DNA of 64,000 nucleotides from Mobula hypostoma. Its lineage: Eukaryota. The position numbers and the translations under genes are program-made. The stretch lies in the NCBI RefSeq assembly GCF_963921235.1, contig NC_086108.1, forward strand, positions 54,748,001-54,812,000, read 5' to 3'. Of this stretch, positions 1 to 51,689 are shown piece by piece; the stretch's first letter is position 1, and each line of letters begins with the position of its first letter. Under the pieces are notes generated by a model. The model did no database searches. It was not told the origin of the DNA and saw only the letters and a program-made list of their open reading frames with translations.

Positions 1-3000
1 GGGTTAATATGAGAATAAAAACGAGCTAATTTATCTTTAGACATGTGTGCTCTGTGGACAACTTTAAACTGAATTAAGGAGTGTTTGGAACAGTTAGAGG
101 AAGTATTAACTAGTTGTAAAATATGAGCCCAGTCATCCGCCGAGATAATGAGGCCCAATTCCTTTTCCCAGTCGGTCCTAATCTTATTGAATGGAGCCAT
201 CCTAAATTTCATGATAATATTACAAATAATAGCCGTTACACCTTTCTGACACGGGTTGAGGTTAGTGATAGCGTCTAAAATATTTGTAGGGGGTAATGCC
301 GGAGGGGAAGAAAGTATGGTATTTAGGAAATTTCTAACTTGCAAATATCTAAAAAAAAACGTGTCCTTGGTAAATTATATTTGTTAGGTAACTGATTAAA
401 AGACATAAGGGATCCATCTGAAAGTAAATCAAAAAACCGTGATATACCATTAGTCTTCCAAATTTGAAAGGCACGGTCCATAGAGGAGGGAAGAAAAAAT
501 ATATTGCCAATAATAGGAATTGCTAGCACAAATTGATTAAGATCGAAAAATTTTCGGAATTGAAACCAAATGTGTAAGGTATGTTTAACTATCGGGTTGC
601 AAACCTGTTTATAACGTTTCAAATCGGAAGGAAGAGAAGAACCTCATATAGAGCCAAGTGCATAGCCTTGAACAGAATGTAATTCCAAAACTACCCAGTT
701 AGGAATGGATAGTGTATCTTGGTCGAATAACCAAAATTTCATGTGTCAAATATTAATTGCCCAATAATAAAATCTAAAGTTAGGTAATGCCAAGCCTCCA
801 TCTCTCTTAGCTTTCTGTAGATGTATTCTACCCAATCTCGGAAATAAATGAAGAGAGTTTCGAGTCTACCAAAAAAGGATTTTGGAACAAAAATCGGTAA
901 TGCCTGAAATATATACAAAAATTTTGGCAGAATAAACATTTTAACAGCATTAATATGACCAGTCAAAGTTAAATAAAGTGGAGACCATTTATAGGAAAGT
1001 TGTGTAATATAGTCAATTAAGAGTAAGAAATTAGTCTTAAATAAATCCTTGTGTTTACAGGTAATTTTAATCCCAAAATATGAAGAATGATTATTAACCA
1101 ATCTAAGTGGCAGGTTCTGATATAAGGGAACATGCTTATTAATAGGGAAGAGTTCACTCTTACTAAGATTTAATTTGTATCCTGAAAAGAGACTAAATTG
1201 TGCTAATAAATCTGGATGCTGGAGTAGATTTTTGAGGATTAGAAATATATAAAAGTAAGTCATCAGCATAAAGTGATACTTTATGAGACTTTAACCCACG
1301 AGTTATACTAATAATGTTAGGAGATTCTCGAATAGCAATTGCAAGAGGTTCTAATGCAATATCAAATAATAAAGGGCTAAGAGGACAACCTTATCTGGTA
1401 CCTCGAAAGAGAGGGAAAAAAGGTGAATGAAGAGTGTTAGTACGAACTGAGGCCGTAGGAGAGTGGTATAACAATTTGATCCAGGATATAAATTTCGGGC
1501 TGAAGTTAAACATTTCAAGCACCTTAAATAAGTAGGGCCATTCGACCCTGTCAAAGGCTTTTTCAGCGTCAAGGGAAATGACACATTCCGGATCGTTTTG
1601 TGACGGGGTATAGACAATATTTAAAAGTGTACGAATATTATAAAAAGAGTAACAATTCTTAATAAAACCTGTTTGGTCTTCCGAAATAATATAAGGAAGT
1701 GCTTTTTCTAGTCTATTTGCTAATAATTTAGAAAAAATCTTAGAGTCAACATTTAGCAAGGATGTTGGTCTATAAGATGCACATTGAGCAGGGTCTTTAT
1801 CCTTCTTTAGTATGAAAGAGATCGAGGGTCTATAAAAGGATTCTGGTAGTTTACCAAGTTTTAATGAGGCCTCCAGAATCCTGGATAACCAGGGGACTAA
1901 TGAGGGTGCAAACAAATTTTTTTTAATTCCACGGTAAACCCATCAGGGCCAGGAGCTTTCCCCGAATTCATAGAGAAAATAACATTCTTGATCTCGTCAG
2001 TAGTAAAGGAAGATTCTAACATAGAGGGTATATCATGTGTAATCTTAGGGAAATCTAGGTTATCTAAAAAGTCACACATATGTTTAGAATCTCGTGGAAA
2101 TTTGATTGATAACATTTTTAAAGTTAGCCAAACCTTATGGCTCTTCTGGAGGGGGTGAGGGCTGTCTTTGGAAAACTCACAGTCCCTTCCTGATAATTCT
2201 TCTCTCGCCCACCTCCTGTCCCCTGCTTTCTCGGTTCTCTTACTATTTCCCAAGCAAATTGGGATAACTGCTCAGCCAGGCTTTCCCTTGATTTGACCAC
2301 GCTAACGGGCAACCCTCTGTTCTTCATGTCTGTCGTCGCCTCTTCCACTGTCTGATACAGTTGCATCTCATCTTCATAAAACAACCGCAGTTTAGCAGGG
2401 TATGGAGTTTGGAATCTAATCTTTCCTTGCTTTAATATTCACTTTACTTCAGAGTATTCCTCACATTTCTGTAGGACCACCAGGGGGTAATCTTGATCAA
2501 AATATATTAATTTCCCCTTCAGAAACACCTTCTTCTTTTCCCAGGCCCTTCGTAGAATCTCCACCTTGGTATTGTATGGAAGGAGTCTAATTACTATAGA
2601 GAATGGCTTATCTTCTCTGTCTTCAGTAGGCCTCGGGAGGAGCGCACGATGCGCCCTCTCAATTTCAAGTTCCATAGTTGAGTCCAGCACCACCCGCAGC
2701 AACTTTCCTACAAACTCCATCATAGACAAACCCTTTGCTCCTTCGGGAACATTGTATATCCTGATATTTTTTTGTCGTGATCTTCCCTCCTGGTCAAGCA
2801 GTTTACTTTCTTGTTGATTTAATATTTTTATTGTCTTACTTAGTATCCGTTCCATGTTTTGCACGCGATCTTCCACCTTCTCAATTCGTGTCTCTGCCAC
2901 CACTATTTTTTGATTGACATTGGTGAGCTCTGACTTGATATCATTTAGTTGCTGTTTTATATCTTTTTGGAATCCCCATATCTCTTCCAGAGTTTTTATC

Positions 3001-3270
3001 ACATTTGCTGCTTCGACTGAACGAGACCCATCATCAGCCTCACGAGCACGCGTTCGGGTAGGACAGCCACCTGTTGCACCCCTCTCATCCATAGGCTCCG
3101 CAGTGATGCTTTTATTATCTCCATTCTTTTTCCCCATTCTTGCCCCCCTATCAATTCAGATATTTTCGAAAGATCTTATATTTGATGGATTAACGGGGCA
3201 AAATATACGTTTTTCCAGAGGAGCTATTGATTTAAGCTGTCATTCTGGACAATGATGTCACCGGAACCAC
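1..3270 (-). mobile_element. L1-clade LINE, decayed: ORF1 (~2124-3137) plus RT part of ORF2; runs off the left edge
   Basis: ORF1 motifs NIRIYNVPEG, EIERAHR, YFDQDY; ORF2 motifs GPDGF, SLDAEKAFDRVEW, YADD at 1259-1270; multiple frameshifts. Confidence 0.9.
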
Positions 3271-3560
3271 TTGTGGGGGTTGTTTTCAAGGTCCTCTGCC
3301 TTTGCTATTATTTTTGCTTGACCTCTATTGCTCCTATCAAAGGAACTGAGATGCTCATTGCCTTCCTGGATGCTATGTCTCCATTAAGCACTACAGCCAG
3401 GAACAGGCTCTTCAGCTCATGATGTTGTGCAAAACTAGTACTCAAATGCCTCATTAAATTAATGCCTATCCTTCTATTCTTTGCACATACATTGCTTATC
3501 TGAGAGCATCTTAAACACCTATCATACTTGCCTTCACCACTACCCCTGGCTGGCAGTGCA

Positions 3561-42219: not shown

Positions 42220-42955
42220 GATAGGAAAGGAGCATATTAACTAGTTACTAGTTAGTAAACTTCATTGAGGAAGGTAGGAGGACTGTTCCAATCTGTCTGG
42301 ATTGGGGGGGAAAACCAGCACAAATTATGTTTCTGGCGTCTGTCCAAGGACATCAACGAGAATGTATTTGCTTGTATACACTAACTGTATCCAGAAGCTT
42401 GAAACAGAAAATTCACTGTGATTTATTGCACAGTTGCTCTTAAGCATAACTTGTGTTGAATTGCAAATGTATTACTCCATCCTTATCTCCAAATTCTCCT
42501 GAAGTTGGACTTGCTATCGAGCTTGTCTCTTAGCTTCCACCTAACATCTTTAACTGCACTAGAAAAAGAATGCCAATGAATGCATTTGGCAAGAACCATT
42601 ATTCTCGTTTTTATATGGCTTATGAATCAGATCAGTTGAAATGATTTTTTTTCTTTCAAAAAATTCTGTCTGTAGTTGCATTGTTAGACAATAAGCCCAC
42701 TTTGGATGTGTCTCATTCATAAACTAATGCAACCTACTGAAGTAGTCTTGCTTTATTTTCGCAAGATTGTTGTTGTGACTGTGGTTCTCTTTAAATAATA
42801 TAATGTTAGCATTTAGTTGAAATAAAAACGCTGACTATGCAAATAGTGGTTGTTCGAAATGGTCTTCTAATTAATTTATTGATCATCTCGCTATTCTAAT
42901 TTGCCCGACTCTAAAACTTCTTGACTTATGGTAAAGATTTTCCAATTTATTTTAG

Positions 42956-43104
42956 GAACTCGGCCAAAGGTTGCAGACAGTAACTTTGAGGACTTGTTGT
43001 CAAGCCAAGGGTTTGCATCCCAGAAGGATAAGAGAGGTCCAAAGACGATATCGGAAATGAGAAAGGAAGAAATGGCTAAAGATATGGACCCTGAGAAATT
43101 GAAG
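42956..43104 (+). CDS. DNAJC6: Auxilin exon (GTRPKVADSNFEDLLSSQGF...EMRKEEMAKDMDPEKLK)
   Basis: ttttag acceptor; non-canonical AAG|gcaagt donor needed to keep frame with the next exon. Confidence 0.93.
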
Positions 43105-44170
43105 GCAAGTGACAGATTTTAGTTAGATTGACAATAATAGAGAAGACCTGTCATATTTAGTTTTACGTTTCATTTTGCAGGTAACTTTATGTAGCACTAT
43201 TTTACTTAAAAATTAATATGCTGTCTTGCATTTTTTAGAGCTTGTCATATTGGAGGAAATGTACTACCATGGATTGAAAATTAGTTATGTATGGAAAACT
43301 GAATTGGAATAAGTAGATCTTTGAGGTTAGAAGTTCCTCGGTCCTCTGTTATTTACTATATATGTTACTGAGCTAGAGGAGAGGCAGATTGTCTGATACC
43401 TAAGTTTGCTGATGGCATAAAAATAAGTGGAAGAGCTGTAAGGAGAATATTTGTTATTGTGCAACAGGATGGTGAGAAATTGTAAATGGGTGAAGCCTTG
43501 GCCAGTTGAGTATAATGTGAGAAAGTGTAAGGTCATACACTTGTGCATTTGGTAAAGATCAAATTCTGAATGGAATGTGACTACACATGACTGAAGTACA
43601 GAAGAATCTATGTGTTGTTCCTGACATTAACAAAAAAGGAGCAGCCAGGTGTAACAACTAGACAGGAGGATTAAAAGCATTTTGATCTTTATTGCAGAGG
43701 AATTAGAATGTAGAAAAAGTTCAGTTGGTTTCAATTGCATAGGATGTTGGTGAGGACAGATGTCGAGAATTAATCTGTTTACCTGGTAGCTTCAGATAGC
43801 TTCCAAAGGATGAGATGAGAGTGATGTCCTGTCAAGAGAGACTAAGCAGGTTGGTCTGTGAAGTTTAGAAGAATGAAAGGTGTATTAAAACATAAAGATT
43901 CTCAGGGGGTTTGACAAAGTAGATGTAAGATATTTTCACTTGTGCGTAAGTCTTCAAAACATTAAACTAATTCAAAGGAAGAAAAGGGAGTTTGGGAATG
44001 CGGGTCCAACCTTGGGTTCACTTTAAGCAAGTTGTGCACGTATCACACAATAGCGTGATGAGGTATACAATTCATGTACTTTTACATATAACCCTTAATG
44101 AATTATTTAAACAAACAAGAATGCTTAATCTCCTCCCTGCTTAGCTATAAACTCCAACCCAATAGAGAAT

Positions 44171-44879
44171 ATAACTATATAATATAACCATTTAATAATT
44201 ACAGCACGGAATCAGGCTATCTCAGCCCTTCTAGTCTGTGCTGAAATCTTACTCTCATCTAGTCCCACCGACCTGCACTCAGCCCATAACCCTCCATTCC
44301 TTTCCTGTCCATATAGCTGTCTAATTTAACTTTAAATGACAACGTCGAACCTGCCTCAACCACTTCTGCTGGAAGCTCGTTCCACACAGCTACCACTCTC
44401 TGAGTAAAGAAGTTCCCCCTCATATTACCCCTAAACTTTTGCCCTTTAACTCTCAACTCATGTCCTCTTGTTTGAATCTCCCCTACTCGCAATGGAAAAA
44501 GCCTATCCACATCAACTCTATCTATCCCCCTCATAATTTTAAATACCTCTATCGTCCCCCCTCAATTTTCCCCGCTAAAGAATAAAGACCCAACTTGTTC
44601 AACCTTTCTCTGTATCTTAGGAGATGAAACCCAGCTAACATTCTAGTAAATCTTCTCTGTACTCTCTCAATTTTGTTGACATTTTTCCCATAATTTGGTG
44701 ACTAGAACTGTACGCAATACTTCAAATTTGGCCTCACCAATGCCTTGTACAATTTCAACATTACATCCCAACTCCTATACTCAATGCTCCGATTAATAAA
44801 GGCCAGCATACCAAAAGCTTTCTTCACCACCCTATCCACATGAGATTCCACCTTCAGGGAACTGTGCACCATTATTCCT
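44171..44879 (-). mobile_element. CR1 3' fragment inside the Gypsy element
   Basis: LYKALVRPNLKYCVQF, FFTQRVVAVWN; candidate agaat TSD. Confidence 0.88.
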
Positions 44880-45160
44880 AGAATGCATCTCAATTACACG
44901 CAGTTTATTATACAATACAACTACTGCATACTGACATCTCAGCATTGTAAATTTTAAATTTTCCTATTCAGACCAAAATATTTAATTGCTGTGGTGGATT
45001 TCTTATTCTTGTGGGATAATGTCTTTCCTGACAAGGAGGATCACTGCTTGGCAGGTGAGACTTGTGGCTGCGAAATGATCTCAGATTCTGAAGCCTCCTG
45101 CATGGTGGTTGTAGGAGTTGACTCTGAGACTGTAGGAAATGGTTCTGACAGCTCTGGGCA

Positions 45161-45728
45161 CCTCTCTTATCCTTCCTTTTTCTTCTAGTTTTGTGCATCT
45201 TGATTTTGGGAACGTGCATTTAGTTCACTGCAGTAATCTCTTATTAATCCTTCTATTGCTCCCTTTATGATCTGATCTGTCCTCCTGGTTTCCTCGTCCA
45301 CAACATCATCTCTTGAATCCACTCTTTTCATATCTGCATTGACTGCTTTCAGTTTGGCCTTCCATTCATCCAGCTGGACTTTGGTCTTTGCATCTACTTT
45401 TATAAGCAATTATTTGTCTCCCATTTGAAGTTCATGCAATAACCCGAATGCACACAGAGTAGATTCTGTTTCTCTATCCTCACAAAAGCTGAATGCTTGC
45501 AACTTTCCTGACGCTCCTTGAACTCTCTTCCAGCTTCAAACATGCCATATTTAGCGAGTAACGTCTTATTAACATATCAGAAGCTTTCTCGGGTGTGTAG
45601 CCTACAAAAACTGTTGTAGTCAGAGTCAGATCACTGCTTTCGTCACTTTCACAATTCTTCTGAGCAGCATGGTCCTTCCTTGGTCCAATATGCTTTCTAA
45701 CTAGAAGCACAGAGGTTGGCACCAACAC
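45161..45728 (-). pseudogene. RBM25: Intronless RBM25 fragment (RRM and flanks) inside the Gypsy element
   Basis: Minus-strand frames give VLVPT..KHIGPRKDH..TTTVFVGYTPEKASDMLIR / SWKRVQGASGKLQAFSFCEDRETESTLCAFGLLHELQMGDK*LLIKVDAKTKVQLDEWKAK..DEETRRTDQIIKGAIEGLIRDYCSELNA, collinear with RBM25; stops and frameshifts. Confidence 0.9.
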
Positions 45729-47216
45729 ACGTTTGTCCTCTGTTGGGCAGCGGTTTATGGTGTTCAGCATGGAGGCAATTGTGGCATCATCCAGTGCCTT
45801 TCTTAATTCACTTTCAGTTGACTCTATTACAGGGGATGTGGCATTCATTTGGTGAATAGATCTCCAATCAAGTTGGAGTTGTCTCAGCCTATCGCACTCC
45901 CACAATGCTCGTCCTTTGGATTTTACCACATACGAGCTCAATGTGGCTTGTTGGTTGTTGTACTTCACAATTACAAATGTCATTCCTGCAGGAGTTATCT
46001 TTTCTCCAGTATGAGTTCTTTGTTGGATATCTGCAGGCTTCAGTTTGGTATCTTAGAAATGCCATTAAAACTTATTTTGTGGAATGACAAACAGCTGAAC
46101 CAGTATCCAATTCCATTTTAATTACAATAATTTGCCATTCACTTCTGGCATGTCTTATTGCTTGTCTATTAATAATTTTCAAACTGTAAATCTCAAGACT
46201 ACACAAACCTGTGTCACTCTCATCATTATCCGATTTCTCATCAAAGATGTGCAGATTAGTGTTATTTTTTAAACTGCAACTTGACTTTTTAGCTTTTACT
46301 CTTCCTTGTGCAGTCCATTTATTTTTGTCTGCCCACTGTGCTCTTTGTATGTGTCTTATTTTGTTGCATTTTCTTCAAATTTCGCCTCTAACCCTGCATT
46401 GGTTTGGTGTATGTGAACCCCTGCCACAATAGTAACATAATTTGTTTGGCCAAGCTGCTTTCTGTTCTGTACTTTTCTTCACGCTCACTTTAATTCCTGA
46501 CTACAACTGAATGGCGTCTCTGTCTGTGGTTTCCATTGAAATAGCAATTTCTATTGCTCTTTTGAATGTAAGTTGTGCTTATTTAAGAGCTGTTTTTGAA
46601 TGCTTTCTTTAAAGATTCCACAACCTTAAACAATCTCTCAGTGTATCATTAAACCCATTACTGAACTGGCAACACTCAATCACTTCAATTCTGTCATGTA
46701 TGCTGAAATAGATTCCCCTCTTTTTGATTCCACATATGAAACCTAAAATCTTCTGCAATCAACAATGTATTCAGTTCTAAATGTTCCTGCATTACTTTCA
46801 CAATATCAGTGAAGCTCATTTTAGATGGCTTGGTTGGAACAGACAAATCAAACTGTATACCTTTAATCCAATGCATTCAGCAAAATTGATACTTGTTCCT
46901 TGTTGGCTGTTTCATTTGTTTTAAAATATTGCTGAATTAAGTCAGTATATATATTTGAGTTATCTTTTGTGTAATCAACCATATCAATTTTTCCAGTGTA
47001 GCCAGCCATTTCTGCTATTTTTTAGTGATTATTACCACACGGTACTCACTCTTTATGAACCTGTGAATTCCTCTATTTACTGCCTTGTTTTAAGAAAACT
47101 TGATCATGTCCTCCCTTCAGAAGAACATGTGCTGTACGTTTTTAAAACTCTTTAAGTTCTTCGCTGCACTTTTTTTTTAAAGGTTGAATGTCGTGCTGAG
47201 CTTCAATAGGTTGGTA

Positions 47217-50200
47217 CAAGTGTCCGCCGCTTTTCAAACGTTCACTTTACAAAACCTTACTGTTACGAAAGACCTACATTAGTTACCTGTTTTCACTAAC
47301 AGAAAGTGTTTTCACTGTTACAAAGAAAGGCAGCGTGCGATAAAAAAGCAGCGTGCGATAAAAGGCAGCGCGCCCCGAGCAGCTGCTCTCCCCCGGATTC
47401 GGAACGGCATTCTCGCCGGCATCGCTTAAACACGTGCCTGTGAGCTGCCATTTGCAAGATGAGTTCGAAGGTATCACAAAGGTAATGCTACGGTTGTTAT
47501 GGGGGACTTCAACATGCAGGTAGACTGGAGAAATCAGGTTGGTACTGGACCCCAAGAAAGGGCGTTTGTGGAGTCCCTCCGAGATGGATTCTTAGAACAG
47601 CTTGTACTGGAGCCTACCAGAGAGAACACAATTCTAGATTTAGTGTTGTGCAATGAACCGGATTTGATCAGGGACCTCGAGGTAAAGGAGCCATTAGGAG
47701 TTAGTGACCATAATATGATAAGTTTTAATCTACAATTTGAGAGGGAGAAGGGAAACTCGGAAGTGTCAGTATTACAGTTGAACAAAGGGAACTATGGTGC
47801 TATGAGGGAGGAGCTGGCCAATGTTCAATGGGACGATACCCTAGCAGGGATGACAGTGGAACAGCAATGGCAAGTGTTTCTGGGAATAATGCGGAAGGTG
47901 CAGGATCAGTTCATTCCAAAGAGGAAGAAAGATCCTAAGGGGAGTAAGGGGAGGCTGTGGCTGACAAGGGAAGTAATGGACAGTATAAAAATAAAAGAGA
48001 AGAAGTATAACATAGCAAAGATGAGTAGGAAGCCGGAGGATTGGGAAACTTTTAAAGAGTAACAGAAGGTAACTAAAAAGGCAATACGCAGAGAAAAAAT
48101 GAGGTACGAAGGTAAACTAGCCAAGAATATAAAGGAGGATAGTAAAAGCTTCTTTAGGTATGTGAAAAGGAAAAAAATAGTTAAGACCAAAATTGGGCCC
48201 TTGAAGACAGAAGCGGGTGAATTTATTATGGGGAACAAGGAAATGGCAGACGAGTTGAACAGGTACTTTGGATCTGTCTTCACTAGGGAAGACACAAACA
48301 ATCTCCCAGATGTAATAGTGGCCAAAGGACCTAGGGTAATGGATGAATTGAAGGAAATTTATATTAGGCAGGAAATGGTGTTGGATAGGCTGTTAGGTCT
48401 GAAGGCTGATAAGTCCCCGGGACCTGATAGTCTGCATCCCAGGGTACTTGAGGAGGTGGCTTCAGAAATCGTGGACGCATTGGTAATCATTTTCCAATGT
48501 TCTATAGATTCAGGATCAGTTCCTGTGGATTGGAGGCTGGCTAATGTTGTCCCTCTCTTCAAGAAGGGAGGAAGAGAGAAAACAGGGAATTATAGACTGG
48601 TTAGCCTCACGTGGGTGGTGGGAAAGATGCTGGAGTCAACTATAAAAGATGAAATTACGACACATCTGGATAGCAGTAACAGGATTGGTCCGAGTCAGCA
48701 TGGATTTATGAAGGGGAAATCGTGCTTGACTAATCTTCTGGAATTTTTTGAGGATGTAACTATGAAAATGGACAAGGGAGAGCCAGTGGATGTAGTGTAC
48801 CTGGACTTTCAGAATGCCTTTGGTAAAGTCCCACATAGGAGATTAGTGGGCAAAATTAGGGCACATGGTATTGGGGGCAGAGTACTGACATGGATTGAAA
48901 ATTGGCTGGCTGACAGAAAACAAAGAGTAACGATTAACGGGTCCCTTTCGGAATGGCAGGCGGTGACCAGTGGGGTACAGCAGGGTTCAGTGCTGGGACC
49001 GCAGCTGTTTACAATATATATTAATGATTTAGATGAGGGAATTAAAAGTAACATTAGCAAATTTGCCGATGACACAAAGCTGGGTGGCAGTGTGAAATGT
49101 GAGGAGGATGTTATGAGAATGCAGGGTGACTTGGACAGGCTGGGTGAGTGGGCAGATGCATGGCAGATGCAGTTTAATGTGGATAAATGTGAGGTTATCC
49201 ACTTTGGTGGTAAGAACGGGAAGGCAGATTATTATCTAAATGGAGTCAAGTTAGGAAAAGGGGAAGCACAACGAGATCTAAGTGTTTTTGTACATCAGTC
49301 ACTGAAAGCAAGCATGCAAGTACAGCAGGCAGTGAAGAAAGCTAATAGCATGCTGGCCTTCATAACAAGGGGAATTGAGTATAAGAGCAAAGAGGTCTTT
49401 CTGCAGCTGTACAGGGCCCTGGTGAAACCACACCTGGAGTACTGTGTGCAGTTTTGGTCTCCAAATTTGAGGAAGGACATTCTTGCTATTGAGGGAGTGC
49501 AGCGTAGGTTCACAAGGTTAATTCCCGGGATGGTGGGACAGTCATATGTTGAAAGATTGGAGCGACTGGGCTTGTATACTCTGGAATTTAGAAGGCTGAG
49601 AGGGGATCTTATTGAAACATATAAGATTATTAAGGGATTGGACACGCTGGAGGCAGGAAGCATGTTCCCACTGATGGGTGAGTCCAGAACCAAAGGCTGC
49701 AGTTTAAGAATAAGGGGTAGGCCATTTAGAACGGAGTTGAGGAAAAGCTTTTTCACCCAGAGAGTGGTGGATATATGGAATGCTCTGCCCCAGAAGGCTG
49801 TGGAGGCCAAGTCTCTGGATGCTTTCAAGAAAGAGATGGATAGGGCTCTTAAAGATAGCGGAATCAAAGGTTATGGGGATAAGGCAGGAACTGGATACTG
49901 ATTGTGGATGATCAGCCATGATCACAGTGAATGGGGGTGCTGGCTCGAAGGGCCGAATGGCCTACTCCTGCACCTATTGTCTATTGTATCGGAAAAGCCT
50001 AAAAGAGCTCATAAGGGTGTTACACTTCGCGTAAAACTAGACATAATTAAGCGTTTCGATCGTGGTGAACGAAGTAAGGACAAAGTGAGTTTGGCTTGTG
50101 GAAGTTGACGAAGATGATGTTGAAGAGGTTTTGGCATCCCATGACCAAGAACTGATAGGTGAAGAGCTGATGCAATTGGAAGAGGAAAGGATAACAATCA

Positions 50201-51372
50201 AAACCGAATTCAGTAGCGAAAGTGAAGTCGTCCAGGAACTGAATGTGAAGCAACTGCGTGAGATTTTCGCTGCAATGGTAAAGTACGACTTTAATTTTGA
50301 AAGGGTACGTCAGTTTAGGGCATACATATTTGCAAGATGGTTTGAGTGCTTACAAGGAACTATATGCTCTAAAAATGTGCGAGGCTCAGCAGTCAAGCAA
50401 GCCTTCCACAGCAGAGGACGAACCTCGACCTTCGACATCGAGGCGCGCAGTCATCGGAGAAGATGAGCTGCCTGCCCTAATGGAAACAGACGACGATGAG
50501 ATGACACCCCAGTGTCCCACCACCCCAACCCCCAGACCCCGGACAGATACCAATTCGTGGAGAATGCAGCGGTAGCCGGGAGGCACCCAGCACATCTTTA
50601 AGAAAAAAGCCGAAATAAACATGCTAATTAATCAGGTGCCACCCGGCACGTAATTGTCGGCCCAGATCAGAGACGATTGCCGATTGCATTGCCTCTGATC
50701 TGGGCCAACAGTTACGTGCCGGGCGGCACCTAATTAATTAGCTTGTTTATTTCGGCTTTTTTCTTAAAGATGTGCTGTGTGCCTCCCAGCTACCGCTGGA
50801 CCCCTGGATGGTTCGCGGATCGGTATCGGTCGGCAGCCTGGAGGTTGGGGGACCACTGCCACACCCCACCCTGCAACGACTCAGTCTAACACACCATCAT
50901 CAGTGTGCTCTGCAAGCTGTCTTCCCAATTCCTGTAAGTGATACTACACTGAACATACATTATTTCTACTTAGGCTGTGTATTTTTACGTGTTATTTGGT
51001 ATGATTTGGCAGCTTCATAGCTTAAAGGTTACTGGAGAGAGTGTTTTTGCCAACAGCGCCTGCATAAGATTTTCTCCCGAGAACGCTTGCGTAAGATTTT
51101 TGCCATGGAGAACAGTGCCGGCAATGATTGTGGAATAGTATTTCTGCGTTATATAGGCTGTGTATTTATCATATCATTCCTGCTTTTACTATATGTTACT
51201 GTTATTTTAGGTTTTATGTGTTATTTGGCATGATTTGGTAGGTTATTTTTGGGTCTGCGAACGCTCACAAAATTTTCCCATGTAAATGGTAATTGCTTCT
51301 TTGCTTTACAACATTCCGGCTTACGAACCATTTCATAGGAACGCTGTACCTTCGGATGGTGGGGGAAACCTG
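47217..51372 (+). mobile_element. Second Tigger/pogo-like non-autonomous copy, split by a CR1
   Basis: TA|CAAGTGTCCGCCGC ... GGGGGAAACCTG|TA; collinear with 11157-12709. Confidence 0.9.
47476..49985 (+). mobile_element. Young 5'-truncated CR1 LINE (partial EN + RT)
   Basis: ORFs 47499..48062 (MGDFN, SDH) and 48099..49901 (FADD) share a frame, split by one TAA; ctattgt tail; TSD gtatc (47471-47475, 49986-49990). Confidence 0.96.
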
Positions 51373-51689
51373 TAGCTGCCTTGGGTTCATTTTAAAAATA
51401 CCTCATTACCAATGTTATGTTTTGTATCTTCAAATCATTGAACTAATTTAAAGGAAGACACAGGAGTCAGGGAATGTTGGTCTAACTTCGGTTTTACTTT
51501 AAGTGAGGCATACACATATCACACGGTACCGTGACACATAGAGTACACGTATTTATGCATATAACCCTCAATGAATTATTTAAACTAGCAAGAATGCTTA
51601 ATCAAACAATGTACATACGCGATTACTCAAATATTAAATACACAACAGACTGGTATTGGTTCAAGACGAGGGCTGGTCATTTAAAATTT

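Follow-up and report, generated by a model that had tools for sequence, protein, structure and literature searches.

The window analysed here, a 64,000-nt stretch of the Mobula hypostoma genome, carries on its minus strand (51647..43938) an old and defunct member of a family of short, non-autonomous LTR retrotransposons of the Ty3/Gypsy type, whose insert is almost certainly a spliced piece of the host RBM25 mRNA that was captured and then amplified as an LTR-element family. Measuring ~2.9–3.3 kb, the family element still has its LTRs, gag and protease, together with a PBS-like site, the tail of the polyprotein and a polypurine tract. Judging from sequence comparison, the RBM25 insert stands in for the RT, RNase H and integrase; the relatives P0058, P0069 and P0137 display RVT_1, then RT_RNaseH, then integrase domains, and an RT-bearing relative, L059, shows 82% DNA identity to window 45960..45780 and then continues into the RT (..LDDAT/AVFKDSIGKLK.., with the slash marking the crossing). 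As RBM25 exons occupy the place of an RT, RNase H and integrase core of its own, the element is classed as a non-autonomous derivative, and its copying would have depended on enzymes that autonomous relatives supplied in trans. The original prediction had proposed that an RBM25 fragment free of introns, in the same sense as the element, replaced these enzymes, and this is borne out both by the passage of L059 into the RT and by the presence of five RBM25 exons without the four introns that separate them in the host.

In the direction of the element, the 5' LTR (51413..51647, minus strand), which starts with TGTTGTG and ends in ..AACA, aligns to both LTRs in all seven of the other copies compared. 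Next come a PBS-like motif led by TGG (51411..51399) and the first part of the leader (together 51372..51412, minus strand), which were recognized by comparison with other copies: in nine of ten of these the motif lies 1–2 nt past the 5' LTR, near TGGTGA(T/C)GAGGT, with variants such as TGATGATGAG, TGGAACGAGG and TGTCGATGAGG, the window version being TGGTAATGAGGTA. The leader is interrupted by a nested plus-strand LINE of ~4.2 kb (47193..51371), not part of the family, which looks far younger than the element it interrupts; the homology to the family breaks at ~51372 and resumes at ~47192/47177. This LINE codes for an endonuclease and an RT (ORFs at 47463–49901; Pfam: Exo_endo_phos_2, E 4.9e-7, and RVT_1, E 6.2e-31), with an open 612-codon RT frame immediately after a 199-codon endonuclease frame. 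The sequence immediately upstream of gag, where an LTR and PBS had originally been placed, is in fact the 5' end of the nested LINE, and the true 5' and 3' LTRs lie at 51647..51413 and 44130..~43938, respectively.

Beyond the LINE, the leader and gag (46400..47192, minus strand; ATG at 47009, CCHC knuckle near 46440) are marked by stops and frameshifts, and were delineated by tblastn with the Gypsy-type gag-PR protein P0057 (E 5e-46, spread over three frames); the zinc knuckle is recovered as zf-CCHC_5 at E 6e-4, under the Pfam cut-off. Positions 45777..46148 (minus strand) hold the aspartic protease (LDTGSAV) followed by a linker, whose end, ..LDDAT, represents the last codons of Gypsy origin; this part has 45–52% identity to P0057 (E 4e-25) and P0058 (E 6e-22). 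On the far side of the RBM25 insert, the 3' internal region (44881..45160, minus strand), which carries the C-terminal tail of the polyprotein (..ERHYPTRIRNPPQQLNI), is colinear in other copies. The last ~17 codons of this region correspond to the very C-terminal end of P0057 (pairwise E 3e-4, ~40 residues); no protein-level match was assigned to the first ~120 nt after the 3' join, where a 'PELS' likeness to P0057 gave no alignment. Hence, the gag, zinc knuckle, DTG protease and Gypsy tail that had been read from the sequence are indeed present. A second nested segment, a 5'-truncated LINE tail (44193..44880, minus strand), is absent in other copies and again no part of the family, and in translation it is similar to the C-terminal portion of the ORF of the plus-strand LINE. 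It is among the most abundant repeats in the genomes sequenced in the runs considered below; in their contigs its summed depth is ~1.5 million as against 15–25 thousand for the RBM25 family part (40–100x). The element closes with the polypurine-tract region (..AGCAGGGAGGAG; 44131..44170, minus strand), 87–95% identical to the stretch preceding the 3' LTR of other copies, and with a 3' LTR (43938..44130, minus strand) that lacks its first ~45–50 nt and aligns to the 5' LTR as well as to the LTRs of other copies. The two LTRs of the window (51603..51427 versus 44130..43951) are 77.2% identical over 180 nt. A direct-repeat search of 43500–48500 recovered no LTRs, since the 5' LTR lies outside the range searched.

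The whole element is genuinely antisense in an intron of an auxilin-family gene, as indicated by a plus-strand exon (42925–43122) that matches bovine auxilin (1n4c; E 8e-17). The antisense placement proposed earlier thus stands, whereas the naming of the gene as DNAJC6 was too specific, given that the exon could belong to DNAJC6 or GAK. A separate observation concerns C75:934507-943494, where a degenerate 17-nt pattern recurs ~70x within 9 kb at a spacing of ~57–370 nt; this indicates a tandem repeat array with no relation to the RBM25 family.

The RBM25-derived segment itself (45776..45161, minus strand) is colinear, in a single block, with five consecutive exons of the host RBM25 gene at 84.5% DNA identity; this figure comes from a single HSP between window 45774..45173 and the host exons spliced in silico (positions 3–603), which crosses four exon–exon joins. 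The corresponding introns, all absent from the window segment, measure 3,425, 1,738, 2,778 and 4,824 nt in the host and are all GT-AG. The segment begins with an in-frame copy of a 48-nt cassette exon (45729..45776; host C1:99832633..99832586; 91% identity over 44 nt). When window 45728..45173 was compared with the host by blastn, it matched the four consecutive exons that follow at 82–86%, namely exon A with the start of the RRM (45553..45728; host C1:99829160..99828990; 85%, E 8.5e-53), exon B (45496..45552; host C1:99827251..99827194; 86%, E 3.6e-13), exon C (45335..45495; host C1:99824415..99824255; 85%, E 4.4e-50) and exon D (host C1:99819430-99819254; 82%, E 5.0e-43). The last of these segments (45161..45334), like the others on the minus strand, additionally holds the last bases of a piece of exon G, reached via a purine-rich internal deletion that defines a short-form subfamily and was itself defined by comparison with long copies such as L041. 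The alignment to the host locus that the original prediction called for thus spans four exon–exon joins without introns, and the segment does not map to a single exon. The extent first given, 45161..45728, was correct as to its RBM25 identity but too short, as the segment starts 48 nt further upstream, at 45776, with one more RBM25 exon.

At the protein level, the peptides previously attributed to the RRM region of RBM25 are found in the minus-strand frames. The ORF at 45185–45409 retrieves RBM25 proteins with E 1e-17 to 1e-25, including those of many fishes at E 1e-17 and 63% identity; the best match is P0001, a 220-aa protein named 'RNA-binding protein 25-like' (E 1e-25). Pfam recovered no RRM from the fragmentary ORFs of the window, and detected one in P0001 only. 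The tail of the protease, the cassette exon and exon A form one open frame of 190 codons in the window. Searches with this junction ORF among proteins of other species gave three matches, each confined to the RBM25 part, and no chimeric protein.

The genome searched for RBM25 and for copies of the family comprises 3.48 Gb in 200 contigs. A C-terminal RBM25 query detected one locus only, on the minus strand of contig C1 (8 candidates, 3 exon matches), and an N-terminal query placed the first coding exon at C1:99840514-99840627; the exons were mapped by tblastn and blastn over 28 kb of this locus. On its upstream side, the cassette exon of the host (C1:99832633-99832586) has a polypyrimidine tract and cag, and on its downstream side gtaacc. 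The peptide it encodes (..MLYTMNRCPTEGKQ) is identical to the N-terminus of P0001, which makes it an annotated exon in a second species. The 48-nt cassette exon (VSMLYTMNRCPTEGKQ) is missing from the gar RBM25. P0001 joins it to exon A via an alternative acceptor 12 nt upstream, which contributes CFTQ, and its own end comes from read-through into the intron that follows exon D. The host and P0001 differ at six exon-A residues, and the window agrees with the host at all six, pointing to the lineage's own RBM25 gene as the source. The canonical small RBM25 exon (..TPMIPV..) was recovered from the RBM25 intron neither by a degenerate pattern, among the 100 matches listed of 151, nor by tblastn over 7 kb of intron. 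We also considered the converse relationship, that the 48-nt host exon is an exonised fragment of the family, and rejected it: the homology is exactly 48 nt long and bounded by splice sites, and no family sequence lies beside it. At the position of the cassette exon L059 has unrelated sequence (18 of 48 bases matching, by our own count).

The family is large. With the 640-bp RBM25 stretch as query, the genome returned 2,913 first-look candidates; all 41 that were scored match, and the 40 places other than the window do so at 81–85% and nearly full length. Gag, RBM25 and tail are colinear in the 29 loci fetched (73–82% identity), and LTR pairs are seen in eight of the ten larger (10-kb) loci, 2.4–3.9 kb apart and 74–82% identical. 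In a comparison of 42 rows, two pairs of which are the same place found twice, 41 show the same 5' join with Gypsy sequence before it and the same join of the cassette exon to exon A, the exception (L052) beginning further in. A 24-mer across the 5'-side junction has 1,080 matches in the genome at ≤3 mismatches, and one across the 3' junction 3,550, versus 0 for the reversed control of the former and 0 for the control of the latter. The earlier suggestion that the chimera spread as a family is thus amply supported. The 3' join is nevertheless 3.3x commoner than the 5' join, which counts against the explanation we favour; the purine-rich left half of this 24-mer may also occur in autonomous elements, or 5'-deleted derivatives may be common.

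Copies of the family come in long and short forms. A gar RBM25 query finds intronless copies over residues ~71–270, extending to residue 300–413 in 23 of the 54 places scored. The long copies (L041, L045, L051) comprise the cassette exon, exons A–F and the first 31 nt of exon G without the seven intervening introns, which are 1,093–6,053 nt long in the host and all GT-AG. In the short form, to which the window belongs, the lysine-rich end of exon D is joined to the end of the exon-G piece with the loss of ~400 bp. The stretch between exon D and the exon-G end is thus 17–47 nt in 21 of the 42 rows, the window included, versus 342–461 nt in the long forms, and intermediates exist. As the 3' join is identical in both, the short form is a deletion derivative that kept multiplying. 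A further variation was noted in L022 (G000:C2:48803617-48807235; locus positions 633–1035), where the equivalent of window 45146..45103, in the tail region, is repeated at least four times at 51-nt spacing, which amounts to a minor tandem expansion. Family-like pieces were also found in all bins of contigs from four sequencing runs (three organism codes and one guessed RNA), which as contigs are silent on expression and strand; one near-identical pair from organism B differs in 1–2 letters over 203–235 nt.

The two ends of the captured piece differ in character. At the 5' join, the RBM25 sequence begins with the very first base of the cassette exon, i.e., right after the polypyrimidine tract and cag of the host, and L059 reads GCA/GTGTTC at the crossing, with a GT exactly there, as read in this one RT-bearing relative, itself decayed. 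Taking exons of ~130 nt, we estimate a chance of ~5% for a breakpoint placed at random to lie no more than 3 nt from the start of an exon. The 3' join, on the other hand, lies 31 nt inside exon G and, as it is inside an exon, can only have arisen by recombination, for which a template switch in the course of reverse transcription would be the simplest explanation. The exact coincidence with the exon start, the GT in L059 and the low chance of a random coincidence together favour a 5' join made by splicing, and we consider a captured family whose 5' join was spliced from a read-through transcript to be the somewhat more probable account. Under this proposal, the intron of RBM25 that precedes the cassette exon would have harboured a parent element in the sense orientation; a cryptic GT at the protease/RT boundary would have served as the donor by which the read-through transcript of this element was spliced to the acceptor of the cassette exon and thence through the normal RBM25 exons; and reverse transcription, with a template switch inside the last exon, would have joined this RNA to the 3' end of the element RNA. 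The alternative acceptor 12 nt upstream that is used by P0001 appears in none of 41 rows, which fits a single capture event. Two points weigh on the other side. The cryptic donor GTGTTC is weak relative to the usual donor consensus. Further, a search of 35 kb of the host RBM25 locus, 4.4 kb of them in the intron upstream of the cassette exon, turned up no remnant of a Gypsy or other LTR element, with 3.4 kb of the same intron lying outside the search; a remnant of the parent element may have been lost after ~10% neutral divergence.

The original prediction had invoked capture by template switching, which suits the 3' join, inside an exon, but accounts less well than splicing for a 5' join on the first base of an exon. 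A route by two such switches is still a possibility of some weight, though we think it the less probable of the two: both joins would then result from microsimilarity-guided switches in a virus-like particle, between the element RNA and a co-packaged mature RBM25 mRNA, as in the model of Tan et al., 2016, requiring neither an insertion into RBM25 nor a chimeric transcript. It is a documented route of LTR-mediated retrocopies in flies, zebrafish, chicken and mouse, according to the portions of that work consulted here (PMC5131818), and the position of the 3' join inside an exon, as well as the want of a parental remnant in the 35 kb of the RBM25 locus, would follow from it readily. An inspection of the junction for microhomology, as had been suggested, was less decisive: at the 5' join L059 and the exon start have in common only GT.T.C, that is, GT and two spaced bases, which is compatible with a microsimilarity-guided switch too, but provides 2 contiguous shared bases versus a median of 6 bp in the cases of Tan et al. 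as given in the same portions (PMC5131818). Moreover, the 5' switch would have had to hit the first base of an exon by chance.

Turning to the fate of the captured piece, the copies have decayed without regard to the reading frame. Across 40 distinct copies, the per-copy differences amount to 9.8/9.4/9.4% at the three codon positions, and variants common to 10–70% of the copies are distributed 46:40:39. This even spread over codon positions, among private and shared variants alike, implies that there was no coding constraint on the inserted copies or on the lineages that multiplied. None of the 40 copies has kept the reading frame, with a median of 1.5 stops and 3 frameshifting indels per copy, and the window copy has 3 stops and 2 frameshifts. 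By contrast, where at least 70% of the copies are unlike the host, the counts for codon positions 1, 2 and 3 are 3, 0 and 20 sites, which is the pattern expected of change in a constrained host gene since the capture. We conclude that the RBM25 piece is a neutral passenger without present function.

A functional reading, in which the captured RRM piece acts either as a Gag-protease-RBM25 fusion aiding the spread of the element or as RBM25-complementary RNA from antisense intronic copies, could draw on the open 190-codon frame that runs from the protease tail through the cassette exon into exon A, on the antisense position of the window copy in the auxilin-family gene, and on exact matches of 23–64 nt to the RBM25 mRNA among the 42 copies examined. 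We regard it as very improbable in view of the even codon-position spread of both private and shared differences and of the loss of an intact frame in all 40 copies. The frame shared by protease, cassette exon and exon A is a one-in-three event. As for the RBM25-complementary RNA that had earlier been envisaged for the window copy, nothing supports such a role: this copy, whose longest exact match to the RBM25 mRNA is 29 nt, is not singled out in any way, being one of >1,000 that occur in both orientations.

The least tenable alternative, foreseen in the original prediction as a poly(A)-bearing LINE retrocopy, is that a LINE-made processed pseudogene landed by chance in a Gypsy element that was already there. 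LINEs whose RT ORFs look intact do occur, also inside this element, but the RBM25 piece has no poly(A) tail and, with some ten coding exons yet to follow in the host, stops 31 nt inside an internal exon, for which reasons it is not a LINE-made retrocopy, and with RT, RNase H and integrase replaced rather than interrupted and identical LTR-flanked joins in >1,000 places, such an origin is exceedingly improbable.

Three measures bear on the age of the captured family. The copies have decayed by ~9.5%, third positions have changed by ~10% between the host and the family (20 of 198 sites), and the LTR pairs differ by 18–26%. Their agreement speaks for one old burst soon after the capture. The age would be of the order of 10^8 years if neutral rates near 0.5–1e-9 per site per year apply.

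The capture has close counterparts among known systems. In the acquisition of oncogenes by acutely transforming retroviruses, read-through and splicing generate the 5' side and illegitimate recombination the 3' side. The RBM25 family resembles these in having its 5' join at a host exon acceptor and its 3' join within an exon, and in the loss of pol with ensuing dependence on a helper; it departs from them in being a germline retrotransposon rather than an infectious virus, in carrying a piece without detectable selective benefit, and in that a search of 35 kb of the RBM25 locus failed to reveal the source insertion. Elements of the LARD and TRIM types are likewise non-autonomous, keep their LTRs and cis signals, use enzymes supplied in trans and can reach high copy numbers. 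Their interiors are non-coding or of unknown nature, whereas the RBM25 family kept gag and protease and has a traceable spliced host mRNA as its filler.

Among the work on retroviral capture, Swain and Coffin, 1992, is cited in the account of LTR-mediated retroposition by Tan et al. (PMC5131818). As far as the parts of it consulted extend, the latter describes how, in flies, mosquito, zebrafish, chicken and mammals, discontinuous LTR elements flank host fragments without introns, some of which re-transpose (PMC5131818). Those chimeras agree with the RBM25 family, in the features reported in these parts, in that an intronless fragment of a host mRNA takes the place of part of the internal ORFs while both LTRs are kept, in that L1 hallmarks are missing, and in that the product can transpose again as a pseudo-LTR element (PMC5131818). 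They differ in scale, further spread being recorded in the same parts for two fly retrocopies, each found at two or more insertion sites (PMC5131818), as against 1,080–3,550 occurrences of the joins of the RBM25 family. The coincidence of the 5' join with an exon start also sets the family apart, as it is not predicted by the two-switch model as outlined there (PMC5131818). In plants, the classic case is the maize Bs1 element, which, according to the sections of the review consulted, has fragments of three genes and is reported as an expressed chimeric gene (PMC13317346). It, too, is a non-autonomous LTR element in which transduced host-gene fragments replace its own coding capacity (PMC13317346). 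However, while Bs1, on the same partial account, combines pieces of three genes in an expressed chimera (PMC13317346), the RBM25 family has a piece of a single gene, in a vertebrate, at very high copy number and under neutral decay. Among the matches listed in literature searches on RBM25 with transposable or LTR elements and on non-autonomous LTR retrotransposons of sharks, no publication on this RBM25-carrying family was found. The family reveals no new kind of system, being of a kind already described as LTR-mediated retroposition and in maize Bs1; what is unusual is its copy number, its traceable eight-exon structure and its exon-exact 5' join.

Taking the mode of capture and the subsequent history together, we propose, with about even confidence, that the family arose by a two-step capture as in retroviral oncogenes and then became a high-copy, enzyme-less repeat, preserving a snapshot, ~100 million years old, of an alternative RBM25 isoform whose 48-nt cassette exon is annotated to this day. 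In a bolder version of this proposal, an in-frame Gag-protease-RRM fusion would at first have helped the chimera to compete for packaging. In practical terms, the >1,000 RBM25-like RRM fragments will mislead gene prediction, the mapping of RBM25 reads and annotation as "RBM25-like", probably in related genomes too. The family also shows the 48-nt cassette exon of RBM25 to be old, and provides an internal clock in the form of copy decay, third-position change between host and family, and LTR divergence. It is a very clean vertebrate example of how LTR elements acquire and spread host exons, with both joins readable to the base against a living source gene.
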